Shown here: positions 1 through 62,693 of the stretch, piece after piece
How positions within the stretch are numbered: the stretch's first letter is position 1
Layout: every line of letters starts with the position of its first letter
Source: a virus
IMG/VR virus record: IMGVR_UViG_3300028829_004719
Reading direction: 5' to 3' (one strand)
Length of the DNA stretch: 64,000 nucleotides
The notes under the pieces: model-generated
Database searches by the model: none
The model's input: only the letters and a program-made list of their open reading frames with translations
Told to the model about the DNA's origin: nothing
Program-made: the position numbers and the translations under genes

Positions 1-341
1 TTCCCCTTGGCTCTTTTCGATCCTTTATTAAGAACGTCGCCTAATTCTCTATTATAAGGAACCCATATAAAAAGAGGAGGAAAATCATGTTCTGGTTCTT
101 TCTGCATGATATATATCTTCTCATTCTTGATATCTACAGCATAACCGTAGACAATCATATCTTCCGGTGGGCTAGTGGCAAGAGGCTTTCCTGCATAAAG
201 AGTAATTAGCCAAAAATTTACTAGAGAAGACGCTACAACAACTATGATTAAGCCTGCTCGTAAACTAATATCTTGGAATCGGTAGATAAGAGACAGACAC
301 GCTACGATGGCTATCACTAAACTTACTATAAATGTAATCAT
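1..341 (-). CDS. Membrane protein, partial (runs off window edge); third gene of the ExbB/ExbD-like module
   Basis: Manual translation MITFIVSLVIAIVACLSLIYRFQDISLRAGLIIVVVASSLVNFWLITLYAGKPL... gives two hydrophobic helices. ATG at 341-339 overlaps the TGA stop of the 338..895 ORF (ATGA coupling). No stop before the window edge. Confidence 0.8.
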   Translation of the reverse strand, partial: MITFIVSLVIAIVACLSLIYRFQDISLRAGLIIVVVASSLVNFWLITLYAGKPLATSPPEDMIVYGYAVDIKNEKIYIMQKEPEHDFPPLFIWVPYNRELGDVLNKGSKRAKG

Positions 342-895
342 TGTATGACAAACCCCTGTAATGGATTTAAATTAAGATTTTTTACGTTGCCATCTTCGTC
401 AATGTAAAATCTAGCTACTGGCACTTCTTCGTTGTGGCTTATTGTCACTACCTTTTTAAAGATGTGTCTATAAGGAGAAGACTTTTGAAATTCTACAGTC
501 ACTTCTATTGGCGAATCTGTTTTTGGTATTCTATACCCCTGTAGAGAGAAGATATAATCACCAGCTTTTATTCTTTCTATTGTCAAGGTTTCCCTAGATT
601 CTTCCAAATTTTTACCATCCACTTGACCGTAGTTTCTAGAAGTGTTGTCATTATGTAGAATAAATACATCGTTCTCTCTTCTTTTGTAACCAGTTATAGA
701 ATCACTATTATCAACCCTGATTGCCCAAGTATCGACATCAGCATCGTGCTTGACATCCCAAGATACATTCAAAATAAACTCTGCCACCTGCGGAGGGGTG
801 GGTGCTTCTTCTTTCTTTGTAATAGGATTGTAAAGTAGTATCATGCAAACAAGCAGGATTAAAATAATGTCTAAAAAACATATTGGAATTTTCAT
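338..895 (-). CDS. ExbD/TolR/MotB-like single-pass membrane protein
   Basis: N-terminal TM helix with an Asp (FLDIILILLVCMILL), then a soluble domain with WDVKHDADVDTW; directly downstream of the MotA/ExbB-like gene. Confidence 0.6.
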   Translation of the reverse strand: MKIPICFLDIILILLVCMILLYNPITKKEEAPTPPQVAEFILNVSWDVKHDADVDTWAIRVDNSDSITGYKRRENDVFILHNDNTSRNYGQVDGKNLEESRETLTIERIKAGDYIFSLQGYRIPKTDSPIEVTVEFQKSSPYRHIFKKVVTISHNEEVPVARFYIDEDGNVKNLNLNPLQGFVIQ

Positions 896-1326
896 TTATC
901 GTCTTCCCTTAGAAAGATAACATAAGCATAAATAAATAAACTACAAACTATTCCGACAATTGTTGTGTTTAAAACAACAGCCATGCCGGTTGTAATTAAT
1001 TCTTGTCTCACTTCAGCATCATCGACGGTACTTAAAGATTCAAATAGATAACTCATTCCAATCACAGTGCCTAGAAGGCCGAGCATCTGGGCTATATATG
1101 ACATATCGTTCATTTTTTTCATATGGTATTTTTTTCTCATGATCTGCCTAAGACAGAATAAAGAAGAAGTAACACCCAGTAACAATATAGCATAACAGAT
1201 AAATGTTACATCGGCACTTGCTAAATCGCTAAAGGCCGAATAAGCCATTTCAGCCACAAGCAGTGAACATATAGCAATAGCTGTTATTGATAGCCATTTA
1301 AGAAAATTTACCTTTTGATTATTCAT
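892..1326 (-). CDS. MotA/TolQ/ExbB proton-channel family protein
   Basis: Hydrophobic helices with the family signatures LGLLGTVIGM and GMAVVLNTTIVG. Confidence 0.85.
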   Translation of the reverse strand: MNNQKVNFLKWLSITAIAICSLLVAEMAYSAFSDLASADVTFICYAILLLGVTSSLFCLRQIMRKKYHMKKMNDMSYIAQMLGLLGTVIGMSYLFESLSTVDDAEVRQELITTGMAVVLNTTIVGIVCSLFIYAYVIFLREDDK

Positions 1327-1341
1327 TTGAAGCCTCCTAAT

Positions 1342-1635
1342 CTACTCTAGTAGATTTCTAATTTTTTGGTTTTGTTCATCGTCTTCCTCGTCTGGTTGTT
1401 CGATATTTACTTGATTCTCATATAACTTTTGAATAGTCTCTGACAGTTGTCTTCTTGCTATACTGAAATCATTTAATGGAAACTCATTAACAACAATAAA
1501 TGAATCTACTCGATCTTCTCTGTGGTATGACAGTGTCAATACAAATTTGTCATTTTCGGGCTTTAAAGAACTGACTTCTGCCAGCATTTCTTCAAGGGTT
1601 TTCATTTTTGGTTTATATTTTTTCACTTTAAACAA
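1342..1635 (-). CDS. Hypothetical protein
   Basis: 97 aa ORF, co-oriented with neighbours, acidic C-terminus. Confidence 0.7.
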   Translation of the reverse strand: MFKVKKYKPKMKTLEEMLAEVSSLKPENDKFVLTLSYHREDRVDSFIVVNEFPLNDFSIARRQLSETIQKLYENQVNIEQPDEEDDEQNQKIRNLLE

Positions 1636-1659
1636 CTTTCTATTAACTTAAAAAATAAA

Positions 1660-1685
1660 AAGGACTATCAACCTTGATAGTCCTT
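1660..1685 (-). terminator. Intrinsic terminator
   Basis: AAGGACTATCA-acct-TGATAGTCCTT 11-bp hairpin followed by a T-rich tract on the minus strand. Confidence 0.85.
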
Positions 1686-1696
1686 AATAAGTAATA

Positions 1697-2029
1697 CTAC
1701 TCTACCGATTTAGTTTGAGAATTCCATTTAACCCAACCGCCATCCGGTAGCCAATTTCCATCACTATCTTTTCGTTTAGGGAAAAGACCGCCGCCTTTTT
1801 TATTAGCACCGAAAGACAACCTCGCCCCACATTTTGTACAACGAAGCTCATAGTACTCATTTTCATCAACAGTTCTAACAACATATTTAACATCATCACA
1901 ACCGCACTTACCACACTTATGACCAAACACCTCCTGAAAAGAAGCTAGTTGACCAACCAAATCTTTAGAAGTGTCGCTTTCAAAAGAAGCGATTAACTCT
2001 TTGGTTTTTGCGTTATAAGTTACCTTCAT
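1697..2029 (-). CDS. Zn-ribbon protein (CxxC...CxxC), possibly ssDNA-binding
   Basis: CGKC and CTKC motifs, aromatic/Gly-rich C-terminus; follows the Rad52-like gene. Confidence 0.6.
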   Translation of the reverse strand: MKVTYNAKTKELIASFESDTSKDLVGQLASFQEVFGHKCGKCGCDDVKYVVRTVDENEYYELRCTKCGARLSFGANKKGGGLFPKRKDSDGNWLPDGGWVKWNSQTKSVE

Positions 2030-2032
2030 TCA

Positions 2033-2803
2033 TTACCTCCATTGTTCATATCCAGAGATTTCCTCCGGAATAGACTTTACGCCAGTTTGATACTCGTTTA
2101 ATACTCCTAACATCTTAGATGCTGTATTCTTCTTAATTTGAGAAATATCTTCATACTTTGACTCACCCATATTGATAAAATTTAAGACATTTAGATCAAG
2201 CTGCTTACACTTGGCGTCAATAAAGTTGATCTGAGGTGGACTAATACTATCTTCCTCTTTCCATTCCCCATCGGTAGACTGTTTTTCTTGTACAGACTGT
2301 CTAACGATGGAAGCTACGTCCTTTTTAGCAAGTTCCTCCGCTGCTAAACATTTGACCTTTAGAGCTTTCCTTAATGCACGACCTTCGGCTCGTGTAGAAG
2401 CGGTAGCTACAGGATGAGCACAAAATAGGTCATCTGTGTTACCATGCCACACGTCTGCTACGTCAGAGTAAGTTCTTAATTGCCCAGAGTCCATCCAGTC
2501 TATCACTACTTCGAATACGACTGTCGCCCTACCGGGACCGTCACTTTCTGTAGCAGGAAAAACTTGAGAAGGTCTACTGATAACAATAGTCCCAAGCAAC
2601 TCTTCGGCAACTCTTCTTAACCCCGCACATACAGGATTACCATCGAATAGCTCCGATTTGTGAAATTTACTCATTACAAAGTCGTTCCATTTTTCAGATC
2701 CGTAAACCGGCATCTGGTCCTCATTCATTTCCATTTCCTTTTCCTTGTTAATATCTTTCTTAATACTTTCTGCGTCAAATAAATCCAAATATGCTGCTGT
2801 CAT
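2033..2803 (-). CDS. Putative Rad52/Sak-like single-strand annealing protein
   Basis: beta-beta-beta-alpha pattern ending in ATASTRAEGRALRKAL, resembling the A-x-T-x-A-x-x-R-A-L motif of Rad52/Sak proteins. Confidence 0.55.
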   Translation of the reverse strand: MTAAYLDLFDAESIKKDINKEKEMEMNEDQMPVYGSEKWNDFVMSKFHKSELFDGNPVCAGLRRVAEELLGTIVISRPSQVFPATESDGPGRATVVFEVVIDWMDSGQLRTYSDVADVWHGNTDDLFCAHPVATASTRAEGRALRKALKVKCLAAEELAKKDVASIVRQSVQEKQSTDGEWKEEDSISPPQINFIDAKCKQLDLNVLNFINMGESKYEDISQIKKNTASKMLGVLNEYQTGVKSIPEEISGYEQWR

Positions 2804-3576
2804 TAGCTTACCTCCAACTCAATAAATCTTTTAGTCTTTTGTGGAAACTTTTTTTCAATAGATTCTAAAGCTTCAGAGACAACTTTCCACAGTCTTCTCT
2901 CTACGCTAAGATTCATATTTTTACAAAGATATTTCACTCTGATGACACAAAACCCCTTACCAATCAATAAGCCGTTTTTGATACTGTCCATTTTAATGGT
3001 TTCTGTTAGTTTGCTTTCACCAAATAAAGGTAGGAAGTGTTGAGGTCCATCTATCTCTATTATAGTGTTTAATTCCGGCAAAAGCAAGTCTATTTCGAAA
3101 TTTCCTTCAACTAATCCCTTTTTATGCATTTGGACTTCATATCCCATCTGTTCCAATTTTCTGCGTAAAAACTTTTCAGCTTTTGATCCCTCTGTACATG
3201 CTTCTCTGAGGGCCGCACCAGCCTTAGACTGCATTTCCTTCTTTTTCATGGCGTCCATGTTATCCCATCTTTCTTTTGCTCCTTTCGCAAATTTTGCCTT
3301 GATGTCTTCCGGCATATCTTTCCATGCTTTCTCGACCCCTTTGCTGATAGCGAGCTTTACCTCATCTGTTCTTTTTTTTCCTTCCGTGGGATGATCTGCA
3401 CGTCCTTTTTTGATGGCTAGTTTCATCGCTTCCGCTCTACTTCTAATTTTTACATCGCTTTTTTTAAGAATTCTTTCTATTTTTTTAGAGTATGTGTTAA
3501 ACTCTTCTGCAATCTCTGCACAGCTACAGCCTTTTAGATATTGCTCTATAACGTATTTATCATCTATGGATTTCAT
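2803..3576 (-). CDS. Free-standing homing endonuclease (NUMOD3-like repeats plus Vsr/DUF559-like PD-(D/E)xK domain)
   Basis: HPTEGKKRTDEVKLAIS NUMOD-like motif; C-terminal EIDLLLPELNTIIEIDGPQHF ... D ... K. Confidence 0.75.
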   Translation of the reverse strand: MKSIDDKYVIEQYLKGCSCAEIAEEFNTYSKKIERILKKSDVKIRSRAEAMKLAIKKGRADHPTEGKKRTDEVKLAISKGVEKAWKDMPEDIKAKFAKGAKERWDNMDAMKKKEMQSKAGAALREACTEGSKAEKFLRRKLEQMGYEVQMHKKGLVEGNFEIDLLLPELNTIIEIDGPQHFLPLFGESKLTETIKMDSIKNGLLIGKGFCVIRVKYLCKNMNLSVERRLWKVVSEALESIEKKFPQKTKRFIELEVS

Positions 3577-4681
3577 TATAAATCTCCTTTATTGAATCTG
3601 CTATGTATTCTATTTGTTCAAACTTAAGTTCTGGAAAGCTAGGTATATTAAAACCAGTCCTATGTAAAACCTCTGACACACAATGCGATTCATACTTATG
3701 AGAGTACATCGGCATCGTGTGAATGGGGTAAAATAAAGGTCTAGTTTCTATCTTCTTATCCTTAAGTAAAATTTCCATCATTTTATTTCTTTGCTCTTCA
3801 TTTATATCCATCGTGACGCTAAACATCCAATAAGAGTGCTGTACATTTGGAGCTTCTCGATGCCAAGAAATTGGACTATTTTCAAAATGACCGATATATT
3901 GTTGAGCAATACTTCTTTTTGTTTTTAAGACAGTATCACTAATCTCCAGCTGGGAGCATCCAATAGCGGCTTGAATATTTGTCATTCTATAATTATAACC
4001 AAGTACATCATGCCAGTATTGCCGACCCTTGGCTAATCCTTGTCCTTTTAGTTTCTCAACCCTGTTATGTAGAGATTCGTTGTTTGTTACGACCATTCCA
4101 CCTTCTCCTGTGGTGATAGTCTTATTGCCGAAAAAACTATATGCAGCTATATCTCCGAATTGTCCTACGTGTTTATTGAGATATTTTGATCCGAAAGCCT
4201 CTGCACAATCTTCTATAATAAATAAAGGCCGTTTTCTATTATGTGCCATATATTGGATTTCAGACATATCTGCGGGATGTCCATACAAATGAACTACCAT
4301 AATGGCTTTTGTTTTTGACGTTATTTTCTTTTTAACATCGTCTGGATCAATCTGCCAAGTGTCTTTTAAACAGTCTACAAATACAGGAGTGGCACCTGTG
4401 TAGCGAATCGCATTTACTGACGCTATATAGGTAAAAGTAGGAACAATAACTTCATCACCCTCTCCAATTCCTAAAGCGGCTAAGGAAAGATGTAATGCCG
4501 ACGTTCCATTGCAGCAGCTAGTTGCATATTTTATATCTGTTTTTAATGAGAAACGATCTTCAAACATCTTGACGTATTTACCTTTAGAAGATATCCACGA
4601 ACTTTCCAAACATTCATTGACGTACTGTTTGGCCGTTTCTGCTATGATAGGTTTGTATATTGGAATCATTGAATCAATCAT
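3560..4681 (-). CDS. DegT/DnrJ/EryC1/StrS PLP-dependent sugar aminotransferase (perosamine synthase-like)
   Basis: NGTSALHL, IEDCAEAFG, SFFGNKTITTGEGG (PLP Lys), GYNYRM. Confidence 0.95.
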   Translation of the reverse strand: MIDSMIPIYKPIIAETAKQYVNECLESSWISSKGKYVKMFEDRFSLKTDIKYATSCCNGTSALHLSLAALGIGEGDEVIVPTFTYIASVNAIRYTGATPVFVDCLKDTWQIDPDDVKKKITSKTKAIMVVHLYGHPADMSEIQYMAHNRKRPLFIIEDCAEAFGSKYLNKHVGQFGDIAAYSFFGNKTITTGEGGMVVTNNESLHNRVEKLKGQGLAKGRQYWHDVLGYNYRMTNIQAAIGCSQLEISDTVLKTKRSIAQQYIGHFENSPISWHREAPNVQHSYWMFSVTMDINEEQRNKMMEILLKDKKIETRPLFYPIHTMPMYSHKYESHCVSEVLHRTGFNIPSFPELKFEQIEYIADSIKEIYNEIHR

Positions 4682-5358
4682 ATTGCATCGTTAATGTAAA
4701 TTATTTCGTTATTATAAATGAATTTCGGCCACATCAAGTTTCTTGAAAGCATATTATTGTGATTCTTTTTTATGGAGTTAGGAATACTGAAATATGCATT
4801 GTTTTCAAAATAAAAATCTAGTTCGTAACCCAAATCCTTAACTAGTTGCTTTCTTGTCTGCCAGTCAAACCCGCACTCAATGCACATAACTTTAGGGAGT
4901 AAGGTTTTGTCCATTTTTTTCATGTCTTTTAACACAAGGCTCTCCGAACCTTCGATATCTAGTATCATAATGTCAAAAAGAACGTCGGCAATTTTTTGGA
5001 TATTCTCAAAAGTTGTACAGGGCACAAAATAAGAGTCCAGTAATCTTCCGTTATTCATCTTAGCGTCATTGTTTTTTGCGTCGTTTGTATATGACCATCC
5101 GACTTCTTTAAATGAATAAAATTCCACCTCTCCTACATGGTCGGAAATTGCAAAATTAAGGATCTGCAAATTTCTGTCTCTTCCAGTGCGGTAACTTTCT
5201 AGAGAGGGCTCAACTAGCCAGACGTTTTTCTGTTGCTCTATCCATATTTCTGATTCGACAGATGTTTCGTCTTGTGTAATACACACACCAGACTCCAGAA
5301 CTGAAAAATTTTCATCTAGCTCGTAGCATTTTGAAATACATTCAGCAACGTGAGCCAT
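4678..5358 (-). CDS. FkbM-family SAM-dependent methyltransferase
   Basis: LVEPS, NFAISD, ILDIEGSE, VMCIE motifs. Confidence 0.8.
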   Translation of the reverse strand: MAHVAECISKCYELDENFSVLESGVCITQDETSVESEIWIEQQKNVWLVEPSLESYRTGRDRNLQILNFAISDHVGEVEFYSFKEVGWSYTNDAKNNDAKMNNGRLLDSYFVPCTTFENIQKIADVLFDIMILDIEGSESLVLKDMKKMDKTLLPKVMCIECGFDWQTRKQLVKDLGYELDFYFENNAYFSIPNSIKKNHNNMLSRNLMWPKFIYNNEIIYINDAI

Positions 5359-5420
5359 TTTATTTTCTCCTCGTATAGTTTATTACAAATCCTCGTTGGT
5401 TGCACGCCTTAACAACAGAT

Positions 5421-5978
5421 TTATTGTTTGTACATTTTTTCTAGCTCTAATAAACCTTTGTCTCTTGGGCCTATTCTCTGAGCGGGGCTTCCAAAATACA
5501 CAGACCAAGGGCGACACGACTTTCTAATTAACGACATAGCTCCAATCGCTGTGCCTTCTTTTATCTTTACTCTTGGTAATATAACAGAGTTAGAACCCAC
5601 GATGGCGTGCTTTTCCAGCGTTACCGTTCCAGATTGTACACCAGTAAACTCCGCAGGAACCGTGGGATTGGTCATATATTTACCAGAATAGTCGTCTGAA
5701 GCACTGTAAACTCTAACGCCTTGAGAAATTCCAGAAAAATCTTCCATTATGATTCCGCCACCACCACCCAAGTAGCAGTAGCCACCAATGTGAACATTTG
5801 ACCCAATTTCGATAAAACCGTTTGCAGCATTGAGTGTGCAAAAATCATCAATACGAACATCGTTTCCGAGAGATATCTTTTCTATACCAATCAGACTAGC
5901 TTTGCTAGAAACTAATACGTTTTTGCCAACGGACTTAAATCTTGCTAATTCAGATTCTCCCAACCAATTACTTTCCAT
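5421..5978 (-). CDS. Hexapeptide-repeat sugar acyltransferase (VioB-like)
   Basis: LbH repeats GKNVLVS, GNDVRID, GSNVHIG; SASDDYSG; C-terminal YFGSPA. Confidence 0.9.
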   Translation of the reverse strand: MESNWLGESELARFKSVGKNVLVSSKASLIGIEKISLGNDVRIDDFCTLNAANGFIEIGSNVHIGGYCYLGGGGGIIMEDFSGISQGVRVYSASDDYSGKYMTNPTVPAEFTGVQSGTVTLEKHAIVGSNSVILPRVKIKEGTAIGAMSLIRKSCRPWSVYFGSPAQRIGPRDKGLLELEKMYKQ

Positions 5979-6047
5979 GTTTTGCTCCTTTTAAATACTG
6001 CGTTATTATTTCTTCTACCAACGCATTAGCACTCGATTATGGCTTCT

Positions 6048-6356
6048 TTAGTATGTTTTGTGTTTCCGTTGGATGAACTTCCCAGCATCTAACTCTTCTC
6101 CTTTGTTTGCAGATTTGACAATTTCTACTATTTTTTCGTCAATCTCATCAATCAGTTGGTTGCGTTGGTAGTTAAGGTCGCAACACCTTTGAATAGCCTC
6201 GTAAAGCTCAGTCTGTTTGTCTTTTGTTCCAATGTATCTTTCTTGAAATTCTTCAAAAGTCATACGTCGAGATTCATAGAGGAACTCTTGATTAGTCCAC
6301 ATCTTCATGTCGATGGTAATCAATTTATCTACCAGTCCGCCTAAAGTATCAGCCAT
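6048..6356 (-). CDS. DUF4254-like protein
   Basis: TLGGLVDKLITIDMKMW ... LNYQRNQLIDEID resembles DUF4254 proteins of polysaccharide loci. Confidence 0.55.
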   Translation of the reverse strand: MADTLGGLVDKLITIDMKMWTNQEFLYESRRMTFEEFQERYIGTKDKQTELYEAIQRCCDLNYQRNQLIDEIDEKIVEIVKSANKGEELDAGKFIQRKHKTY

Positions 6357-6357
6357 T

Positions 6358-6819
6358 TTATTCTCCTATTATATTAAGTAGTTGTTTCATATTCCAATTA
6401 TCTACAATTCCTACAGTTTTTTTATTGCAGAAATTTTCTATGAGGTCTGCATGAGATACGCTTCTAGCTATGATTTTTATTTTGTCATCTCTTAAAATCT
6501 GCATCGCTGCTTGAAAATGCACAGGATTTTTTAACCAGTCTAAATTCCAAAGATACAAATACCTATCGCTTTTTTCTGGTAGTTTAAGAATAGTTCTTGC
6601 CTCTTCTAGTGTAGTCCCGATTAGTACGCCGTTAAAAGACGACATAAACAGACTCATTTTTGTCGCGAAGAAGGGGTGTTTAGGAGGTATGCAGTTTCTA
6701 TTATGAAAAACCGATGGAGAGATGTCGGTATCATTCATGCATTTATTAAACTCTTTTATAAGATAAAAGGATTTCTGTGACGGAGATAGATCGTATAAGT
6801 GTGCAGCAATGTTTATCAT
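6358..6819 (-). CDS. Hypothetical protein (glycan cluster)
   Basis: 153 aa ORF in the operon. Confidence 0.7.
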   Translation of the reverse strand: MINIAAHLYDLSPSQKSFYLIKEFNKCMNDTDISPSVFHNRNCIPPKHPFFATKMSLFMSSFNGVLIGTTLEEARTILKLPEKSDRYLYLWNLDWLKNPVHFQAAMQILRDDKIKIIARSVSHADLIENFCNKKTVGIVDNWNMKQLLNIIGE

Positions 6820-7439
6820 AGGCAGGTCTTTCCAATCGTTAACTCGTTAATATCTTGAACATCAACTACTGAGTTGTTGTTCATGCCCTGTTCCCCAAAT
6901 AGGTTCTTCACGTTTTTATAAATATTTTTCTCCAAGGGTATTGTTTTATCAAACGGTCTATTTTCCCATAGTCGAAGAAGTGTTCGAGTTTTCCCATACA
7001 TAAAGTCACCATTCATACTTTTTCTATTGATATTTAGACCTTCGCTCCCGTAGTTTAATATTGTAAATTTATTTTCTTTGATACTAGCTATACTTTGCAT
7101 TTCAAATCCAGCGGTTAGAATCATAGAGTGCTGAATTTCGTAGTTTTTCATTCTAGTTAATGCATCTATTACCATGTCCTGTCTAACCCATGTTTTGCGT
7201 GTAACCATCTCTGTTTTGTCTAAATCTGCTAATGGTCGATGCCAAGAAGTGTCGCGAACGTTGGCAACAACAATTATTTTGGGATCTGGAACCAAGTTTT
7301 TCATAGAGTTTATGGAATGAAGAACCTTTTGCCACCTTGTTGTGGGGTCTTCTTTCATGTATTTGCTTACTACTATTATTCCTAATTTGTTTTGCATTAT
7401 GTCAATCCTTTTAAAAGATTTAATTCTGTATGAGCACAA
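6816..7439 (-). CDS. Hypothetical protein (glycan cluster)
   Basis: 207 aa ORF in the operon. Confidence 0.65.
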   Translation of the reverse strand: MCSYRIKSFKRIDIMQNKLGIIVVSKYMKEDPTTRWQKVLHSINSMKNLVPDPKIIVVANVRDTSWHRPLADLDKTEMVTRKTWVRQDMVIDALTRMKNYEIQHSMILTAGFEMQSIASIKENKFTILNYGSEGLNINRKSMNGDFMYGKTRTLLRLWENRPFDKTIPLEKNIYKNVKNLFGEQGMNNNSVVDVQDINELTIGKTCL

Positions 7440-8260
7440 TGTATTTGATCTATATTTAAATTACTAAGCTTCACCCTTTTACCTCTATTGAATTCGTAAA
7501 GAAGTCTTTGTTCCGATATATTATAAGTTAATGCGTGTGGGTTTTTATGAGAATTTTGCACCATATTATTTGGACTATTGACAACGCAGCTTTGTAATGG
7601 TATGCCAACATATGGACCTAACAGATTGGTAAACCTTTGAAGAGCACTTTCTATCTCGTTAGGCGTCTGCTTCCACTTTTTTAATTTTTGCAAAAATACA
7701 AGCTCATCCATCCAGTCGAACATATCTCCAGTTCTAAAGATATGACCGTCTACGGACAAAGGGTAGTTCCAATATCCTCCAAAAAAATGCTGCGTCCTGT
7801 CGTATACGACTCCATATTCGTATCGATATAGCTTTTGATCTGGTGCATACTGCAATGGGTCATCGATCATAACTTCTGTGCCATTTGCATTATGCACGGC
7901 TCTTTTATTTGTGTTTAACCCTAGACGTAACGAATAGCAACATATACTATCTGTAAAACACTCATCCTTAAGATCAGGAGACTCTGTATATACTATGCAG
8001 TCATCAGTAAGAAACATAATATAGCCATTGTCGCATGTAGCTACAAGCATTAAAACATCTTTAAAAAGAGAGTTGGATTGCGTCCAAAACTCTACACTAG
8101 GATGATCCTTCTGAACCGTTTCATATGCCTGCTTATAATCATCATCGCAAGTGTATATAACATTAACCTTATAATCCATCTTTAAATTAACAAGACTGTT
8201 TAGGCAAAGATCCAATTGCAATGGTCTATTTTTACTGAATATAACTAAAGAAATCTTCAA
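7397..8260 (-). CDS. GT-A fold glycosyltransferase (GT2-like)
   Basis: VIFSKNRPLQLDLCLNSL N-terminus and FLTDDC DxD-like motif. Confidence 0.75.
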   Translation of the reverse strand: MKISLVIFSKNRPLQLDLCLNSLVNLKMDYKVNVIYTCDDDYKQAYETVQKDHPSVEFWTQSNSLFKDVLMLVATCDNGYIMFLTDDCIVYTESPDLKDECFTDSICCYSLRLGLNTNKRAVHNANGTEVMIDDPLQYAPDQKLYRYEYGVVYDRTQHFFGGYWNYPLSVDGHIFRTGDMFDWMDELVFLQKLKKWKQTPNEIESALQRFTNLLGPYVGIPLQSCVVNSPNNMVQNSHKNPHALTYNISEQRLLYEFNRGKRVKLSNLNIDQIHCAHTELNLLKGLT

Positions 8261-9212
8261 AACGCTTCTCCTGTTTATTTTTATAATACCAATTGATAGT
8301 GTCTTTAAGCCCTAAGTAAAGCCCTGTTTTAGCTTTAAATCCAAAAATCTCATAAGCTTTACTAGTATCTAAACATCTGCGTGGTTGTCCATCTGGAAAT
8401 TTTGAGTTGTAGATTATCTTTCCGTCGTACCCCATAAGGCCAGAAATTAATTCTGCTAGTTCGCAAATCTTAATCTCTTCTCCCGTTCCCACATTGATTG
8501 GCAGTGGAGTAGTTTCTGCTTCTAGGGATCGACAGATAACATCGGCACAGTCATCAACATATAAAAACTCTCTACTTGCATTACCAGTTCCCCATAGCTC
8601 TATTTCCTTCTGCTTAGTTGATTTTGCTTTATCTATCTTTAATATTAATGCAGGGATGACGTGACTGCTTATTGGATTGAAGTTATCGTATGGCCCATAC
8701 ATATTGACCGGAATCAGATTTGTAGAATTGAGGCCGTATTGTCTGTTATATGCAATCAGCATTTCTATAAGTGTTTTTTTAGCGATGCCGTAAGGAGCGT
8801 TGGTTTCTTCTGGATATCCATTCCATAGATTTTCTTCTTTGAATGGAACCGGAGTAATTTTAGGATAAGAACAAACAGTTCCAATCATAATAAGATTTTT
8901 CAACTTTCCATACTTCTTAGCGGTCTCAATTAAATTCATCCCCATAGAAAGATTGTCATAAAGAAATTTTCCGGGCTGATCTCGATTGATACCTATACCT
9001 CCACAGGCAGCGGCGAGATGGATGATATAATCAGGTTTCAGCTCTTGAAATGCATAGTCTACCATTTTTTGATTGGTTAAATCCCACTGTCTTCTGCCAG
9101 CCAATCCGAGTACGTGATAGTTGTAAGTAGACTTTAGTCTTAATGTGACTGCGGTTCCGAGGAATCCTGTAGATCCGGTAATAACTACTCTAGGTTGTGA
9201 TTTATTCATCAA
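8232..9212 (-). CDS. fcl: GDP-L-fucose synthase
   Basis: ITGSTGFLG, HLAAACGGIG, YGIAK (YxxxK), WGTGNASREFLYVDD, DGQPRR. Confidence 0.95.
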   Translation of the reverse strand: MMNKSQPRVVITGSTGFLGTAVTLRLKSTYNYHVLGLAGRRQWDLTNQKMVDYAFQELKPDYIIHLAAACGGIGINRDQPGKFLYDNLSMGMNLIETAKKYGKLKNLIMIGTVCSYPKITPVPFKEENLWNGYPEETNAPYGIAKKTLIEMLIAYNRQYGLNSTNLIPVNMYGPYDNFNPISSHVIPALILKIDKAKSTKQKEIELWGTGNASREFLYVDDCADVICRSLEAETTPLPINVGTGEEIKICELAELISGLMGYDGKIIYNSKFPDGQPRRCLDTSKAYEIFGFKAKTGLYLGLKDTINWYYKNKQEKRFEDFFSYIQ

Positions 9213-10245
9213 TTAAATGCTCCTCGTATTGTTTAATTATTTTTGAGGATAAGTGCCCAAGTCCAAATTCTTGCAATATTGTAGAAATTCTATGAAATCC
9301 AGTATGATTTTTTTTCACTATGTCTTGTCCACTTTTAGCCAATCCTAAACGGTCAGCGGGGTTTTTTAAATAATGATCTGTCAACTCTTTAAAATGATTT
9401 GGATTATCTGCAAAAACTACTGAATCTTTAAATAATGTGTGGTATCCCTCTACATTATCACTAATACAAAAGCCTCCTGCATACAAAATTTTGAATATTC
9501 TTTCATTTACATCAAATCCATACTCCTGAGCATGTGGTTCGCTAAGATTGGGACAAATTTTTGCAGAAACGAAGAGATCTTTAACCTTTTCGTCTTGTAT
9601 CATGCCGCAGTATTGATTTACACGCCAAGGTTGATTTCCGAATATTTTAGTCTTGTATTTGCCTACTGGATTCAACAAGGGGAATAAGTACGGTTCTATT
9701 ACTTGTCCTTTATACGGCCAAAACCCTCCAACAAATCCAATATCACACTCTAGAGCGGGATCAAACTTGGCATCACCGTAAGATTCAGTATCTGCACACA
9801 TCATAAGTGATACGGGTTTAATTCCGATAGATTCAAAACGGTTATGCGTGTGTTGGATGGCGTTTGGTGTGTAGTGTATATGAATAAATTCTGGTTGACC
9901 TGTTTGATTTTTTAGATCTTCTAATACATTACGCTCTTTTACACCGCAGGTCAAAATATTAAACTTGTTATGATCAATATTTGGCGTTTGATCACCCCAG
10001 TCTCCTGCACGCAATCCAACCTTTAGATGCGGTCTTTCTTTAATACACTTTATGGTCGCTTTATCTAGATTATAGGCTTGACCCATAAAAATATCAGGTT
10101 GGAATTGATCGAATACATCAAATGCTGGACGGGAATTAATCTCCCAATACGCAACCTCAAATCCACACTTCATAAAAGCGTTTGCCCAAGCCATTCTCTG
10201 ATAGTGATGAGCGTGCCTACCATCTCCTGAAATCAATACTCTCAT
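9202..10245 (-). CDS. CgeB-like glycosyltransferase (GT-B)
   Basis: DIGFVGG, AKICPNLS, NERIFKILYAGGFCISD. Confidence 0.8.
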   Translation of the reverse strand: MRVLISGDGRHAHHYQRMAWANAFMKCGFEVAYWEINSRPAFDVFDQFQPDIFMGQAYNLDKATIKCIKERPHLKVGLRAGDWGDQTPNIDHNKFNILTCGVKERNVLEDLKNQTGQPEFIHIHYTPNAIQHTHNRFESIGIKPVSLMMCADTESYGDAKFDPALECDIGFVGGFWPYKGQVIEPYLFPLLNPVGKYKTKIFGNQPWRVNQYCGMIQDEKVKDLFVSAKICPNLSEPHAQEYGFDVNERIFKILYAGGFCISDNVEGYHTLFKDSVVFADNPNHFKELTDHYLKNPADRLGLAKSGQDIVKKNHTGFHRISTILQEFGLGHLSSKIIKQYEEHLIDE

Positions 10246-10940
10246 TGTATATCCTTTATCCTGTCTATTTCTAGTAAGTTTTTGTTCTTAGGCTCATAGC
10301 ATTGAAAAGAACCTCCAAGCTGAATCACTTCATTAATAATTTCGAAAGAGAGCCTCTTTTTGTCTTTATCCTCGTATTTGTTAAATAAACTTGTTAGTAT
10401 TTTATATTCTTTTCCTGTGAAAAACGCCATCTGTCCCCATTTTGTAGGAAGTCCATATGACAAGATTGACAAACGACCGCCAATCATTGTTAATCCAATT
10501 TCTTGGTCTTTGATATAGTCTTCCGTGTCTATAATAACAAAGGATTGAGAATAATCTACATTTATACAACTTTCGTTAAATAATATATCTCCATGAACAA
10601 ACATAAAATTTTTACATGAAGCATTGTTAAATGCCAATCTCAAACTCTCTGAAGAATTTGTTTCGTTATAAATTTGATTCTCAACTACTCTTGTAGAGTT
10701 TTTTATCTTTTTTATAACTTTGTTTGCATGACATCCAACAACTGTTATTATTTCTACGTCTTTAAAATAGTTATTAATAGTTGATAACTGATGTTCGATT
10801 AAAGGCTTAGAGTTTATTTTCAATAAACTTCGAGGCTCATAAGATTTGATTTTGCTTCCACATCCCGCAGCTAAAATAGCAACAGATATACTGCTATCGG
10901 CTATTTTAGATTTTTGAATTTTTGTCACAAATCGAGACAT
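10242..10940 (-). CDS. Nucleotidyltransferase (LicC-like NTP transferase)
   Basis: ILAAGCGSKIK..PRSLLKIN..PLIEHQ, FVHGDILF, EIDRIKD. Confidence 0.85.
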   Translation of the reverse strand: MSRFVTKIQKSKIADSSISVAILAAGCGSKIKSYEPRSLLKINSKPLIEHQLSTINNYFKDVEIITVVGCHANKVIKKIKNSTRVVENQIYNETNSSESLRLAFNNASCKNFMFVHGDILFNESCINVDYSQSFVIIDTEDYIKDQEIGLTMIGGRLSILSYGLPTKWGQMAFFTGKEYKILTSLFNKYEDKDKKRLSFEIINEVIQLGGSFQCYEPKNKNLLEIDRIKDIQ

Positions 10941-10945
10941 TAAAT

Positions 10946-11710
10946 TTATCCTGTGATTATTTTGACGTTTTGTTTAAAAATTTCAGGAGTCATCTTCATA
11001 GATTGATTCCTGCCGTGACAGTTAGCAACGCCTAAACATTCAGGGATATGCGTGGTCATACAAACCTTAGACAATCTCAACCATAAATCATAATCTTCTG
11101 TGCATCCGATAAACCCTTGACTAGCTGGTCCATGAAGTTCACTTCGATAAAATTCCCCGTTCGGTAACCGTATCATCTCTAGATATTTCTTTTTAATTAG
11201 TGCGTTACTATGAACCATGCAATTCTTTTGTAGTTCTATACTACAATAAGAATCTTTAAATTCTCTCTTGGTATAATTAGGAAACACGTTTTCGTAGTCA
11301 GCGTATGCCACTCCTACTTCTTCGTGTTCGACAAGTTTCGCTACCAGTTTCTCGACTTTCTTTAGGTAATAAGCGTCATCAGCATCAAGAACGCCAATAA
11401 TATCGGCCCAGTCCCAGCACATATCAATCGCTACATTACGGGCGACACTAGCACCAGAGTTCTCAATTCTTTTGGCAAAGACGAATTTGGGATCGCTTTC
11501 TGCAAATTCCGATATTAGTTCCCAAGAATTATCTGATGATCCATCATCTACAACATAAAGCTGTATCTCGCCTTGGTAGTATTGCTTTTGAATACTCTCC
11601 ATAGCAGCTAAAATATAGTCGCCATAGTTGTAGTTCGCACAAATGATTGCTACTTTAGGAAGCATTAAATTCCTCCCATTGTATAATATTTGTGTTTTCA
11701 CTTCGTTCAT
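10946..11710 (-). CDS. GT2 glycosyltransferase
   Basis: YNYGDYI, VVDDGSSD, ARNVAI, LDADD, EDYDLWLR. Confidence 0.95.
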   Translation of the reverse strand: MNEVKTQILYNGRNLMLPKVAIICANYNYGDYILAAMESIQKQYYQGEIQLYVVDDGSSDNSWELISEFAESDPKFVFAKRIENSGASVARNVAIDMCWDWADIIGVLDADDAYYLKKVEKLVAKLVEHEEVGVAYADYENVFPNYTKREFKDSYCSIELQKNCMVHSNALIKKKYLEMIRLPNGEFYRSELHGPASQGFIGCTEDYDLWLRLSKVCMTTHIPECLGVANCHGRNQSMKMTPEIFKQNVKIITG

Positions 11711-12458
11711 CTGCGGCTTTTACTTTGTCTAAGAATGAGCGACTATCTATAATTTCATCTTGAAAAATTTTAGTTTTGTTTCCATTAAGAAATTTAAACA
11801 GGTAAGCCGGGAATATCATATTATTAAATCCATCTTTAGGCTCTACCATAACTATTTGCTTCATATCTTTGTTTATCAACTTATGCAACTTGTCTAATGT
11901 ATCGGCAGGTACATGCATTCCGCTACTAATACACATAATCCAACCATTTTCTGCATGAGCGAAGGCGTTGTCCACCAAGACATGTACTCCTCTCGAATCC
12001 GTATGTTGCATAAGGTGATATTTAGTATCAGAGACTTCTCCAAAGTTTTCAATAAATAAGTTCCAGACTTCTTCATTGTATTCAACCTTATCAGTCACTA
12101 CAACCACATATGCTGCATTATGACTCATGTTTGCAATTGACTTAATAGTTAGCTCTAAAGCTTGAATAGCTTGTGGCTCATCTGTTTTAAGTCGAATAAA
12201 AAAGCCCATTCTTGGATAAATCTCTTTGAGCACTTCTAGATGGGGTTGCAATTTCTCGTCGAAACTTAAAGTAGACTGCCATTCATTAGGTCGATAAGCA
12301 TTGCAAAATCTAGATAAGACAAAATACTTCTGACTGTCGTCTAACCGTGGTTCAACACCTAGTTTAGACGGCCTCTCAAGATGGCAACCGCGTTGAGAAC
12401 CGTCTCGATCCATCGACGCAAAGACGCAGCCTTCACAATTCGTATTTATATTTTGCAT
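11655..12458 (-). CDS. Hypothetical protein with Cys-rich N-terminus
   Basis: 267 aa ORF; CEGC, C and FCNAYR motifs. Confidence 0.7.
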   Translation of the reverse strand: MQNINTNCEGCVFASMDRDGSQRGCHLERPSKLGVEPRLDDSQKYFVLSRFCNAYRPNEWQSTLSFDEKLQPHLEVLKEIYPRMGFFIRLKTDEPQAIQALELTIKSIANMSHNAAYVVVVTDKVEYNEEVWNLFIENFGEVSDTKYHLMQHTDSRGVHVLVDNAFAHAENGWIMCISSGMHVPADTLDKLHKLINKDMKQIVMVEPKDGFNNMIFPAYLFKFLNGNKTKIFQDEIIDSRSFLDKVKAADERSENTNIIQWEEFNAS

Positions 12459-12459
12459 T

Positions 12460-12927
12460 TTAAGACTTCCTTTCTAATGTCAGGATAAATGTATCTCTAT
12501 AAAACTGTTTATGAATCTCTACAAAGTTATCTGGTATGTATTTTTCTACTTCTTCAATAGCTAGGCACGATTTTAGAATCGGATCAATCTTAGTAACCTT
12601 AGACTGCTCACTAGTCTCTTTTTGCACAGATTTTGGTTCACTGTTGAACAACATATTATTGATATCTTCTAGAGAGGTTCCTCTATAAATTTGGTCAGCT
12701 ATGCTGTTCCAGTCGTAGTCTGATATCAAAACCCGTCCACCAATTCTAACTTTTGAAAAAACCAAGGATAAAACTTTAGGCAGATCTGCAAGTTTGAATG
12801 TAGATAAGAAAAACTCACAGGCGATATATGTGGCTTCGGCGTTATCTACTCCTTCAGAAAAAGAACGAATATCTTTATATGTATTTTTTGCTTGACTTTG
12901 AGGGTTTAGAGATATTCTCATTTCCAC
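12460..12927 (-). CDS. Short methyltransferase-like protein
   Basis: SKVRIGGRVLISD resembles the class I MTase L.PGG.L segment; no clear SAM-binding motif I. Confidence 0.45.
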   Translation of the reverse strand: MEMRISLNPQSQAKNTYKDIRSFSEGVDNAEATYIACEFFLSTFKLADLPKVLSLVFSKVRIGGRVLISDYDWNSIADQIYRGTSLEDINNMLFNSEPKSVQKETSEQSKVTKIDPILKSCLAIEEVEKYIPDNFVEIHKQFYRDTFILTLERKS

Positions 12928-13946
12928 TCTCCTATAATATGATAAAACAGTTGATTCCAGCCATCTATAAATCTTTTCAAGTTAAAGTCGGAGAGAATAG
13001 TTTGCCTTCCAGCCTCTCCAATCTTACGTGCTAAGTCTGGCTTATCTAATAACTCTCTGCACCAAAATTTCAGATCTGATGCGTTGTTGGCTATAATTCC
13101 GTTGACACCATGCTCAATGATTTCTGGTATCATACAAGTTCCCGTTGTGACAACAGGACAGCCGCACGCCATAGCTTCTAACATAACCGTTGGTACAGGT
13201 GAGTGAAGTGATGTATTTAAAAACACGGCAGCGGTTTGATAAAGCTGTCTCAAATGTTCTCTTGACTCAGCGGGCTGTGAAAATCCAGCATGTTCTCCTG
13301 TGCATTTTCCTACCACTTGACATGGTACGGACGATGCTACTTCTTTCCACAAATTAAACCCACAACACCAATCTCTGGTAGGGAACTCGTTGACTACCGA
13401 TAAAACATGATTTTCCTTATACAGCATAGTTTTATTACTATACGACTCACCCCAAAACTCTGTGTCAACACCATGCTCTATGATATAGCCTTGATCGAGG
13501 CCCCATTTATCCCTATTGTACTCAGAGATGAATGAGTTATATTTAATCGGCAAACTGTTATAATTTTTGATCTGTTGATCTACATCAAATCTAACATCGG
13601 GCAAAACATGACAATGTCGCAGAATAGGAGGTGCTGCCTGCTCAGCCATTCCTGTAGTTCCCGTTAGAATGTCATGAGCTACCTGAAGTCTATTACAACT
13701 TGTATGACTTAACACTAAATCAACATCTAACGATTCTGGCAAACTATCAATAATATGGTAATTTTCCGGAATAGGTGCATACGTTGTATCCCACTCTTTA
13801 CCATATCTTAATGAGTAGAAGTTGTGACCCGTCTTGCATAAGCTTTCTTCATATCTTTCATGAGTGGCAAATGTAAGGATGTTTAGTTTCTTAGGCGTGT
13901 CCCTCATATGATATCTTACAGATCTTGTACTTGCTCTAGACGTCAT
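12918..13946 (-). CDS. GT4 glycosyltransferase
   Basis: IEHGVD, VFLNTS, MLEAMACGCPVV, IIEHGVNG. Confidence 0.9.
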   Translation of the reverse strand: MTSRASTRSVRYHMRDTPKKLNILTFATHERYEESLCKTGHNFYSLRYGKEWDTTYAPIPENYHIIDSLPESLDVDLVLSHTSCNRLQVAHDILTGTTGMAEQAAPPILRHCHVLPDVRFDVDQQIKNYNSLPIKYNSFISEYNRDKWGLDQGYIIEHGVDTEFWGESYSNKTMLYKENHVLSVVNEFPTRDWCCGFNLWKEVASSVPCQVVGKCTGEHAGFSQPAESREHLRQLYQTAAVFLNTSLHSPVPTVMLEAMACGCPVVTTGTCMIPEIIEHGVNGIIANNASDLKFWCRELLDKPDLARKIGEAGRQTILSDFNLKRFIDGWNQLFYHIIGEWK

Positions 13947-15018
13947 TTAAAATCTCCTTAATCAATTGTCCCACAGCTTGATGACTATATCTATTTGACT
14001 TCTCAATACATTTCTCTGCAATACCCTGCTTCATTTCGGAGTTGGAAAGCATATCATACATACCCCTCATTGAACTGCATAGTTTTACAACATCAATTTC
14101 CCGCCAACGCGAATAAGCAGTGTCTAAATATGGAGGACTCTCTACAGCTCCAAAGCACGTCTGTAGCGTTGAAGGCACTGCCGTTCCATAACAATGATCC
14201 ATTCCTATGCCATCTGTCCAAATTGAAGGAACACCCATAGCTCCGAGTTCAAGAGACGGAATGCAAAACGCTTCACCTCTGCTCGGCATGACAAAACAGT
14301 CGATTTGATTTAGGAGTGACAAATACTCTTGTCTTTTTGGCATACCGGTAACGATTACCTCTTCTTTGTAACGGTTTCTTATTTTTAATCCGGATCTAAT
14401 ATGTTCAAGATACTTTTGTATAGATTCTAAATCTCTTTTAGATGTTTTGATAAATAACGAAACAGGTTCTCGCGGATCGAATGTCATATGGTAAGCTTGT
14501 ACCAAGGCTTTTAGGTTTTTCCTCTCGATGAATTCACCAACAAACCCAAATGTAAAGCTAGACACAAGTGTGTCGATAGGCATACCCTTGGGAATGTTAG
14601 CATACTCAGAAAGATCTAGAGAATGAGGCACGACTTTAACAGGAACCCCTACTGCACTTTCAATAGCAATTTGCTTTGTCGTTTCACTAGGAACCCAAAT
14701 CTCATCCATAAGATTACAATTTCTTACCCATCTTTGTGTAAAATTGGTCGTTTCAACAGCTAAAAATCCAATATTTTTATATTTACCATTATAAACATAA
14801 TTGTGAGGAAGTGTATGCTGAATTACAACGTCACAACCCGTGTTTTTTTTACCTTCTAATTCTAAAATGTTTGGCTCAACTTTTGCATCATTTTGTTCGT
14901 AGGTTATAGCCCTCGGAACAACTTCGATCCCTACGCTATTCATTGCTAAGATATTATTTACGGCTGCGTTACCCCAGCCCGTTCCGTCTTTATAATGACC
15001 TATGTATAAAACTTTCAC
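13936..15018 (-). CDS. GT4 glycosyltransferase
   Basis: ERKN, FVMPSRGEAFCIPSLE. Confidence 0.9.
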   Translation of the reverse strand: MKVLYIGHYKDGTGWGNAAVNNILAMNSVGIEVVPRAITYEQNDAKVEPNILELEGKKNTGCDVVIQHTLPHNYVYNGKYKNIGFLAVETTNFTQRWVRNCNLMDEIWVPSETTKQIAIESAVGVPVKVVPHSLDLSEYANIPKGMPIDTLVSSFTFGFVGEFIERKNLKALVQAYHMTFDPREPVSLFIKTSKRDLESIQKYLEHIRSGLKIRNRYKEEVIVTGMPKRQEYLSLLNQIDCFVMPSRGEAFCIPSLELGAMGVPSIWTDGIGMDHCYGTAVPSTLQTCFGAVESPPYLDTAYSRWREIDVVKLCSSMRGMYDMLSNSEMKQGIAEKCIEKSNRYSHQAVGQLIKEILNDV

Positions 15019-15704
15019 TGGCTAGACTCTCCTAACTCCATAAGCTGTTCTTTAAAATCAGAAGATCTGGTACTAACTGTTTTTTTATGCAGATGTTTAA
15101 ACTTTTCAAACATCTCTTCGTTTAAATACCAATCTTCGACAGGACGATCAATAAACTCCCCAACATTTTCCCAGATAGGCTTGTATCCTAAACTCATAAA
15201 TTTATCTCTATCTAGTTTGTGCCTTTTTACTACTTTAGTCTTGTGTTCTTCGGTGTGGTTTTGATCACAGTTTGGATATGACTGAAACAGATTATGTTCA
15301 TAGGTTATAATCTTAAATTTATACTTTTCAAAATCCAGTTCTTCAAAAACCTTTTCTTGTGCATCATCAACATCAAAAGATAAATAATCAATTTCTGTAG
15401 GACAGTTTGCCTCTTCTAAGATTTCATTTATATTTCTCTGCATTAAATCTTCACATAAGATTTTAGCGTTCCTTTTAGTGCGAATAAAGTCACACCATCT
15501 TTTATCATAATCTATAGCTATCCCTGTCCAACCCGAATACCACTCTAAAAAATAGGTATTACTAAAAAAACCGGGATCATTTTCTCTGGGTGGTAACTGT
15601 CCAGTTCCCGCCCCGACATCGAGGAAACAACCTGTAGTTTTTCCTCCTGTTATTGACCAAACAAAAAAATCTTGATAGAACTGTGACTTAGACTCTAGCC
15701 GCAT
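15015..15704 (-). CDS. FkbM-like methyltransferase
   Basis: SQFYQD, FLDVGAG, SNTYFLE..GWTGIAID, IDYLSFDVD, ITYEH. Confidence 0.85.
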   Translation of the reverse strand: MRLESKSQFYQDFFVWSITGGKTTGCFLDVGAGTGQLPPRENDPGFFSNTYFLEWYSGWTGIAIDYDKRWCDFIRTKRNAKILCEDLMQRNINEILEEANCPTEIDYLSFDVDDAQEKVFEELDFEKYKFKIITYEHNLFQSYPNCDQNHTEEHKTKVVKRHKLDRDKFMSLGYKPIWENVGEFIDRPVEDWYLNEEMFEKFKHLHKKTVSTRSSDFKEQLMELGESSQ

Positions 15705-19701: not shown

Positions 19702-19730
19702 TAGTATGCCTCCTGTTAATAAGTGCCATG

Positions 19731-20594: not shown

Positions 20595-21240
20595 ACTTAA
20601 TCTTTTTAGATAGATTGCGTTGCATTTTCAGAAACTTGATTAAGATATTGGCAGTATCTTTAACATCCTGTAAAGCATCGTGAGCATTATCTTTAGACAT
20701 ACCAAAGTAATCACGCAAATAATCTAGACTATAACCTTTAACATCAGCGTTATTTTCAAACCAACAATAAACATGTTGCATGAGATCCATTGTAAAAATA
20801 GGATTGAAAAGTTTTTGCTTATGTTTCTTTTCGTCAATCGGGCCATAAGATTCACACAGTCGGTCAACGATGGGCATATCGTAACCGTTAATGTTATACC
20901 CTGCCGCAATTGGAGCCGTGAAAGAAGTCCCCTTCCAATTATACTTATCGCAAAACTGAGTGAACTTTTTCCAAACCGTCTTAGGCATTGGCCCCTTTGA
21001 AATTTCTTCTCTAGTCTTTCTTGTGACTTCGAGAGCCTTTTCTTCAACCGGATCGAATCCGGCAGCTATAGCTTTCTCATCGTCTACAATACAACGCATC
21101 GTACTTTCAAAGACACCTCCGGGCTGTAATTCTAACTTTCTAGCGTGAATGGCTACGGCGGCAATTTGTGTTGGCTGACACCTGTATGGGTTTTGACCTG
21201 TGGTTTCAAAGTCAAATACAATTATGTCCCTATAATTAAT
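20554..21240 (-). CDS. DEDDh 3'-5' exonuclease (DnaQ/epsilon-like), probably ATT-initiated
   Basis: Frame is open 47 codons upstream of the track's 21099 start and holds ExoI IIVFDFETTG; ExoII AGYNINGYD; ExoIII AHDALQD. Confidence 0.9.
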   Translation of the reverse strand: MNYRDIIVFDFETTGQNPYRCQPTQIAAVAIHARKLELQPGGVFESTMRCIVDDEKAIAAGFDPVEEKALEVTRKTREEISKGPMPKTVWKKFTQFCDKYNWKGTSFTAPIAAGYNINGYDMPIVDRLCESYGPIDEKKHKQKLFNPIFTMDLMQHVYCWFENNADVKGYSLDYLRDYFGMSKDNAHDALQDVKDTANILIKFLKMQRNLSKKIKFEKAFANGDLYVK

Positions 21241-21263
21241 AATACACCTTCGCTTTCTTTTAT

Positions 21264-21434: not shown

Positions 21435-21439
21435 AATCT

Positions 21440-42964: not shown

Positions 42965-42966
42965 AA

Positions 42967-52537: not shown

Positions 52538-52544
52538 AACGTCT

Positions 52545-62690: not shown

Positions 62691-62693
62691 AAA

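Follow-up and report, generated by a model that had tools for sequence, protein, structure and literature searches.

Ion-driven motors of the 5:2 type are the power source of flagella, of uptake through Ton, of Tol-Pal, of gliding and of the Zorya defence, and every output newly found for such a motor has been informative; in the MotA/ExbB/TolQ family the pore is lined by Gly/Thr motifs. Here we analysed a cassette of three membrane genes, gA, gB and gC, lying within positions 1-1326 of a 64,000-nucleotide viral DNA, IMG/VR record IMGVR_UViG_3300028829_004719 (the whole stretch is referred to as the window), whose products resemble parts of these motors. The nearest published concept that we found is given in section 8 of PMC12204202 (Williams-Jones et al., 2025), which pairs TolQ-like proteins with "TPH-vWA" proteins, i.e. 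an Asp-bearing trans-pore helix (TPH) fused to a head other than ExbD, and which places the Gly/Thr motifs of the last two transmembrane (TM) helices along the ion path. As that section presents them, these pairs share with our trio a predicted 5:2-type motor, an Asp helix carried on a head that is not ExbD/TolR/MotB-like, and the status of an uncharacterised system; they differ from it in that the head of the trio is TerD-like and not vWA, that one gB gene replaces the heterologous pair, that gC is added and that the trio is also borne by phages. In the literature searched, supplements aside, we met no account of the trio, no stator subunit bearing a TerD-like head and no phage system of the ExbB/ExbD type that has been characterised. 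In PMC11361711 and PMC13065750, viral "ExbB" or "exbB/D" genes are listed as auxiliary genes by annotation only.

The open reading frame (ORF) list of the window gave gA, gB and gC as overlapping ORFs on the minus strand, amounting together to about 500 residues. Direct reading of the sequence placed an ATGA stop/start overlap at both junctions, gA-gB (892-895) and gB-gC (338-341), bearing out the translational coupling of three membrane genes proposed in an initial annotation of this DNA. We propose, with a probability of about 55%, that the three products form one ion-driven envelope motor, in which gA and gB build a 5:2-type core with a new head, gC is a new third subunit and work is delivered on the periplasmic side. 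Such a motor is the best-supported explanation of the trio, and we infer its architecture from the homology of gA, the invariant Asp of gB, the operon structure and the published parallel described above.

In the search against Pfam, gA scored well above the cut-off of the MotA_ExbB model (PF01618), with an E-value of 6e-12 and 45.9 bits vs. 22.9, and the initial annotation was thus right to place the first gene in the stator family. The same model is matched by gA relatives from Rhizobium phages and bacteria, three of the seven scanned falling slightly under the cut-off, and the top PDB sequence match of gA was TolQ (8odt; residues 60-130 vs. 118-186, E 0.021). The channel motifs LGLLGTVIG and NTTIVG are both present and their residues are strongly conserved: T122 and G125 were found in all 162 relatives, G83 and G86 in 161, G90 in 160, T121 in 146 and T87, the Thr of TM3, in 140. 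The alignment of the gA family (18 relatives) showed two N-terminal hydrophobic segments, a variable loop and then the two motif-bearing helices; the variable loop ranges from 0 to about 80 residues and is nearly gone in phage copies, the TM2-TM3 loop of gA itself measuring about 15 residues. Judged from its sequence, gA is a genuine but minimal member of the family, devoid of the cytoplasmic domain of ExbB, TolQ or MotA. Phage gA has no such domain, and the motor would therefore have to do its work within the membrane or periplasm, like Ton and Tol, instead of driving a rotor in the cytoplasm. The outer ring of the proposed motor would be made of gA, whose conserved Thr and Gly motifs would line the path of the ions.

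The second gene encodes a protein with one TM helix, which in the AlphaFold2 (AF2) model (predicted local distance difference test score, pLDDT, 83) spans residues 5-22, holds Asp9 and is joined by a linker of about 15 residues to a beta-sandwich formed by residues 37-175. Asp9 was kept in 165 of the 166 gB relatives taken from the loci and was invariant in 43 and in 52 diverse members, while W46, D53, D55, D83 and E102 were each conserved in 166/166. The initial annotation had read one TM helix with an Asp in this gene and had made its interpretation depend on conservation of that Asp, which is borne out; the description as ExbD/MotB-like stands for the Asp-bearing helix, which is of trans-pore type, and fails for the periplasmic part, where a TerD-like fold is predicted instead. 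The family is large: it has 37 close homologues, and the profile search yielded 873 representatives at E ≤ 1e-3, 254 of which reached E ≤ 1e-10; almost all are 180-240 amino acids long and share one architecture. No NCBIfam or PADLOC family and no Pfam family at E ≤ 1 was matched by the window gB, ExbD, TerD, OmpA and MotB_plug included, and PHROGs held no family for gA, gB or gC. When 25 gB relatives were compared with Pfam, one, which JGI names ExbD, gave a sub-threshold ExbD match limited to the N-terminal helix, and one gave MotB_plug at E 0.089. The top PDB sequence hit of the gB family profile was the TM segment of MotB with the Asp residues aligned, at a non-significant E-value of 0.45.

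The predicted structure of the head was compared with known ones. Residues 37-175 of the gB model aligned with the TerD structures 2kxt (Z 9.6, root-mean-square deviation (rmsd) 3.8, 136 residues) and 2qz7_B (Z 9.6, rmsd 3.5, 128 residues), vs. Z 5.9 for the next-best chain; TerD entries were also on top in Foldseek (3ibz, E 1.8e-4), and TerD-like phage proteins turned up for gB in BFVD. gB thus resembles the tellurite-resistance protein TerD (2kxt, 2qz7, 3ibz) in the predicted fold of its head and in a conserved acidic cluster, and departs from it in having no sequence or profile similarity, in being membrane-anchored and in lying outside any ter operon; the TerD Pfam model PF02342 had no match on gB, on the 25 relatives or in two genomes carrying gB relatives. 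TerD is described in PMC8779313 as binding Ca2+ at two sites. Since the TerD fold binds Ca2+ and the acidic residues of gB are invariant, a cation site in gB is a reasonable inference, and by analogy D53, D55, D83 and E102 probably bind a divalent cation. The head would be periplasmic, by analogy with ExbD, TolR and MotB. The N-terminal helix with Asp9 would then insert in the gA ring as an ion-binding trans-pore helix, displaying the TerD-like beta-sandwich in the periplasm in place of the ExbD/TolR or OmpA-type domain.

The product of the third gene, gC, has two hydrophobic helices and is a membrane protein; 113 of its residues are encoded before the start of the window is reached. Its full length in the close relatives L003-L005 (our locus numbers) is 166-169 amino acids (L003:4561-5064; L005:4561-5061). 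The AF2 model of the L003 copy (pLDDT 78) showed a TM hairpin (2-20 and 25-51), a small beta domain that includes one helix (61-120), a disordered stretch rich in Gly, Glu and Asp (124-149) and then a C-terminal strand packing back on the domain. Among 154 family members, a G-W-P-like turn follows TM2 in 144, and a loosely defined Pro-rich motif is found in the C-terminal part of 120, at a median of one residue from the end. In the 106 of these 154 sequences that have exactly two hydrophobic segments, the TM1-TM2 loop averages 1.97 K+R vs. 0.05 D+E and both ends are net negative; the loop would therefore be cytoplasmic, and both termini and the domain periplasmic. In the proposed motor gC would be an adaptor or output arm, its small beta domain being followed by a flexible linker rich in acidic residues and Gly, and by the conserved Pro-rich peptide at the C-terminus.

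The arrangement recalls the ExbB-ExbD-TonB and TolQ-TolR-TolA systems, which are likewise three-gene operons with a channel subunit of the MotA_ExbB family (TolQ being the best PDB match of gA), a partner that crosses the membrane once and has an Asp close to the cytoplasmic end of the helix, and a third membrane-anchored protein with a periplasmic extension. Unlike in these systems, gA has 144 amino acids and almost no cytoplasmic loop, the periplasmic domain of gB is TerD-like, and gC has two TM helices, no His in TM1 of the window copy and no match to the C-terminal domain of TonB or TolA; nor was any Pal, TolB or TonB-dependent receptor gene seen near the trio. In section 8 of PMC12204202, a SHLS/His motor-binding motif defines the N-terminal TM helix of TonB/TolA, and this motif cannot be carried by the window gC because its TM1 has no His. 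No TonB_C-type family was found for gC, nor any such fold in searches dominated by its helical hairpin. The idea that the third gene fills the TonB or OmpA slot stays plausible from topology and tail, and is disfavoured by the two TM helices, the TM1 without His in the window and the lack of a Pfam match in the copies scanned.

These differences also bear on whether the cassette is an auxiliary energiser of the host Ton system, its ExbB-like protein joining the uptake of iron or polysaccharide that depends on TonB. Viral genes are read in this way in PMC11361711 and PMC13065750, and gA and ExbB share a Pfam family. However, gA scored only 13.7 bits against the ExbB equivalog TIGR02805 (cut-off 135), gB has no ExbD domain, the module brings two partners of its own and travels as a closed trio, and no gene for TonB or a TonB-dependent receptor was present among the neighbour families scanned. 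Such a role is highly improbable.

The trio was also compared with the other two groups of stator-like pairs. With MotA-MotB and PomA-PomB it shares the four-TM topology of gA and, weakly, the alignment of the Asp helix of the gB profile with the MotB TM segment noted above; unlike the flagellar stators, gA has no rotor-binding loop, gB has neither an OmpA-like peptidoglycan-binding domain nor a plug match, and the window showed no flagellar genes. Zorya ZorA-ZorB offers another MotA-like and Asp-helix pair outside motility and uptake, and ZorA models gave weak matches to gA (PADLOC, E 5e-4 to 1.6e-3, 15-17 bits; NCBIfam, E 0.07), whereas gB and gC had no PADLOC match. In contrast to Zorya, there is no long ZorA tail, no ZorB-type domain and no ZorC, ZorD or ZorE gene, and the trio sits in phage genomes.

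The order gA-gB-gC was complete in 78 of 80 further IMG/VR loci and in 73 of 80 bacterial loci, as detected with hidden Markov models built from the trio. Six of the seven bacterial loci missing the full trio lie at contig ends, and L048 has neither neighbour gene. With the same three families in the same order in so many viral and bacterial loci, the linkage goes beyond chance, and the genes do stay together in relatives, a point on which the initial annotation had made its reading depend. The scan found 133 viral places and at least 534 bacterial ones; the 80 bacterial loci are the best-scoring of the latter and not a random sample, and since the bacterial genomes were scanned with the narrow gB alignment, the broader alignments having no conserved stretch, they are biased towards one subfamily. 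Three IMG/VR contigs hold close copies of the cassette, with gB 68-73% identical to that of the window, and the trio moves as a unit, because the genes on either side of it are not the same in the window, L003 and L005. Furthermore, gB relatives occur in four Rhizobium phages, two of which were examined and keep the A-B-C order with a gA matching MotA_ExbB. Among the GenBank phages of INPHARED, megablast with positions 1-6000 of the window and tblastn with gA gave no match. The gB profile matched 13 of 401 sampled Pseudomonadota genomes (about 3%, seed genome included), and the bacterial copies are chromosomal operons and not prophages, since their flanks are housekeeping genes. The earlier suggestion that the phage builds a machine of its own thus gives way to a cassette present in at least 136 IMG/VR contigs, four cultured Rhizobium phages and bacterial chromosomes.

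In the gB trees, the window belongs to a clade of four on a long branch, most viral gB fall in one clade and 68 proteobacterial gB in another, with six changes between virus and bacteria labels in the FastTree tree (154 rows) and four in the quick IQ-TREE tree (54 rows). The phage and bacterial versions of gB therefore look like old, mostly separate lineages. Two unusual proteins were each seen in a single record, a 451-amino acid gA-gB fusion (P0187), which counts in favour of the motor, and a 371-amino acid tandem gC-gC protein (P0186), and these could be real or could be artefacts of assembly or frameshift.

The distribution of the trio also helps to weigh the possibility that gA-gB is a gated ion channel and not a motor, i.e. 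a leak for protons or cations whose opening and closing the gB head would control in response to periplasmic Ca2+, with gC as regulator, through which the phage would depolarise or re-tune the host membrane for superinfection exclusion, for lysis timing or to stop uptake dependent on the proton-motive force (PMF). MotB is known for a plug that acts at the channel mouth, and the gB linker between helix and head, at about 15 residues, is so short that the head would sit at this position. In addition, phage gA lost the cytoplasmic domain that its relatives use for torque or as a cytoplasmic cage, the acidic cluster of gB is invariant, and the TerD-type fold is tied to Ca2+ binding in PMC8779313. 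Nevertheless, the trio is kept in bacterial chromosomes beside housekeeping genes and genes for pyrroloquinoline quinone (PQQ), where a depolarising leak makes little sense; a conserved third subunit with a long periplasmic tail suits an output arm better, and the window gB has no plug-type Pfam match. We regard such a leak as unlikely.

To our knowledge no stator-like module has been known beside PQQ genes. PQQ-related genes were found within 4 kb of the trio in 33 of the 80 bacterial loci (e.g. L016:394-3351, L059:6363-8153 and L045:152-1084), spanning Alpha- and Betaproteobacteria. They comprise a PQQ-dependent alcohol dehydrogenase in 18/80, pqqB, pqqC and pqqE directly upstream of the trio in 10-11 of 80, the PQQ-system beta-propeller TIGR03866 and the binding protein TIGR03863 in 9/80 each, together with ABC genes of the PQQ system. 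Four of the loci (L043, L056, L061 and L080), filed as metagenome-assembled genomes of "uncultured Bifidobacterium sp.", have pqq genes, and their trio groups with Oxalobacteraceae/Burkholderiaceae copies; they are probably mis-binned contigs.

PQQ dehydrogenases need Ca2+ or lanthanides, and the cassette could accordingly be imagined as a PMF-powered periplasmic device for metals or cofactors, which in bacteria would mature or supply PQQ-dependent alcohol dehydrogenases by inserting Ca2+ or a lanthanide or by moving PQQ or metal across the envelope, the phage copies having diverged towards a related cation role. The neighbourhood just described fits this idea, the gB head resembles the Ca2+-binding TerD fold, and the fold matches of the gC domain, weak and non-significant as they are, include the periplasmic metallochaperones SilF and CusF. 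On the other hand, 47 of the 80 bacterial loci have no PQQ gene inside the 4-kb flanks, the 17 neighbour families met most often in the 80 viral loci scanned include no PQQ family, the largely separate clades of viral and proteobacterial gB mean that function may differ between them, and the bacterial counts come from the best-scoring loci. As an account of the trio as a whole, we rate it as quite unlikely.

Near-identical DNA was detected in 20 runs from nine studies of marine, estuary, marsh and sediment material, two of the runs being possibly the source sample. Three RNA libraries, from two studies, yielded contigs covering the cassette (X16, positions 93-1172; X15, 655-1403; X17, 576-750 and 853-1074), the X17 library having been treated with DNase. 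This is consistent with transcription of the cassette. With the proposed motor, the phage would draw on the ion gradient of its host to act on the envelope during infection.

Several observations weigh against the proposed motor. On the side of gA, the best scores against the NCBIfam equivalogs of TolQ, PomA, ExbB and MotA type were 13.7-18.7 bits, with cut-offs of 135-403, and the Thr of TM3 is replaced by Lys in 20 of the 162 relatives. gB has no match to the Pfam models of ExbD and TerD, and hhalign of the gB family with eight true TerD proteins gave a probability of 0.35%; because this profile comparison failed, the likeness to TerD is one of fold only, and cation binding is a guess. For gC, no Pfam family was matched by the window fragment (E ≤ 1) or by four bacterial copies (E ≤ 0.001), nor was any NCBIfam or PADLOC family. 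The fold searches with gC were dominated by the hairpin: VIA returned only generic helical hairpins over residues 1-51, and Foldseek had no match at E ≤ 0.001, its weaker ones including small beta-barrels (for instance SilF and CusF) with a probability of 0.6-0.7. The search of the ESM Atlas gave only unnamed, virus-rich clusters, DUF2135 and PPC at 0.85-0.86 being leads only. Two Rhizobium phage copies of gC are without the Pro-rich C-terminal motif, and the missing His of the window TM1 counts on the same side. Moreover, the gA-gB fusion is one record only and a possible frameshift artefact, one of the four RNA runs (X18) had no contig on positions 1-1300, in itself a neutral result, and contigs from RNA libraries cannot exclude carry-over of DNA.

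A wider and tentative reading, which we consider rather unlikely, would make the trio a new class of ion-driven periplasmic machine: the cation-binding TerD-like head would be turned by the minimal MotA-like ring, and gC would pass this on as a pull or a signal to a target in the envelope. Large phages would use their copy to take over envelope energetics in infection, and the proteobacterial copies would serve the maturation or supply of PQQ dehydrogenases, by metal insertion or by movement of cofactor or metal. If true, this would tie a 5:2 motor to the biogenesis of a periplasmic enzyme for the first time. For phage biology, the cassette, abundant among large phages from the environment and also present in cultured Rhizobium phages, would be a module of membrane energy distinct from holins and from the known exclusion systems. 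Its small size favours structural work. The trio is genetically tractable in the cultured Rhizobium phages, of which RHph_N3_19 and RHph_I1_18 carry it, and in PQQ-linked isolates such as Noviherbaspirillum pedocola and Azohydromonas lata, and the link to PQQ dehydrogenase clusters offers a concrete phenotype to seek. The features of the cassette in the window are collected in Table 1.

Table 1. Position of the cassette genes and of their main features in the window.
Feature	Positions	Strand	Description or basis
gA	892..1326	-	144-amino acid minimal MotA/ExbB/TolQ-family channel subunit; four predicted TM segments; cytoplasmic loop almost nil
AGGAGG ribosome-binding site, upstream of the gA ATG (1326-1324)	1333..1338	-	Direct sequence reading
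LGLLGTVIG motif, gA residues 82-90, TM3	1057..1083	-	ORF and sequence reading; conservation in 162 relatives
GMAVVLNTTIVG motif, gA residues 114-125, TM4, including T121/T122	952..987	-	Conservation across 162 gA relatives
gB	338..895	-	185-amino acid single-pass protein; trans-pore-type helix with Asp9 and TerD-like beta-sandwich (predicted periplasmic)
gB Asp9 codon (TM aspartate)	869..871	-	D in 165/166 locus relatives
gB residues 37-175, beta-sandwich domain with invariant W46, D53, D55, D83 and E102	371..787	-	AF2 model, fold search and conservation counts
gC	3..341	-	First 113 residues of a protein of ~167 amino acids; two-TM hairpin and start of small beta domain; remainder past the window edge

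Around the trio, the viral loci carry ordinary phage genes; a conserved fourth gene was not found in the 80 loci scanned. The commonest neighbour is a GDP-mannose 4,6-dehydratase gene directly after gC, in 19/80 loci, an adjacency that is probably a lineage effect. Genes for trypsin-like serine proteases lie 1-3 kb downstream of the trio in an IMG/VR phage (L005:5883-6620) and in a Rhizobium phage (L001:7144-7866); this protease was rejected as a general partner of the trio, since it was seen in these two loci only and neither copy had a relative in the other loci of the set L001-L088.

The window itself represents a large marine phage, encoding a DnaE-type polymerase in pieces, a primase, DnaB, a RecA/UvsX-like protein, ribonucleotide reductase, ThyX and PhoH, as well as a sigma factor and many glycosyltransferase genes. 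The polymerase (DnaE type, Pol III alpha) is split over several ORFs at 17681-23264, with a Hint/intein-like module and an RNase T-type exonuclease in between. A 684-amino acid ORF at 48545-50599 combines an intein splicing domain with a LAGLIDADG domain, and a further homing-endonuclease-like gene is found at 2803-3576. At 40798-43599, the large subunit of ribonucleotide reductase is divided into two ORFs (416 and 269 amino acids), ~100 bases apart, adjoining an HNH endonuclease gene. The region 31667-33823 encodes a 718-amino acid protein that joins an N-terminal P-loop region, with PHROG matches to terminase, primase and DnaC-like families, to a RecA/UvsX-like core, and could be a fusion or contain an inserted element. 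Two large sets of sugar-nucleotide and glycosyltransferase genes (3560-17358 and 50583-55388) hold a DegT-type aminotransferase, an epimerase, GT1, GT2 and GT4 enzymes, a cytidylyltransferase and a WavE-like protein. Finally, a DUF1501 protein (E 2.9e-58) is encoded at 57729-58970, and adjacent tRNA-Asp(gtc) and tRNA-Thr(tgt) genes are located on the minus strand at 62616-62764.

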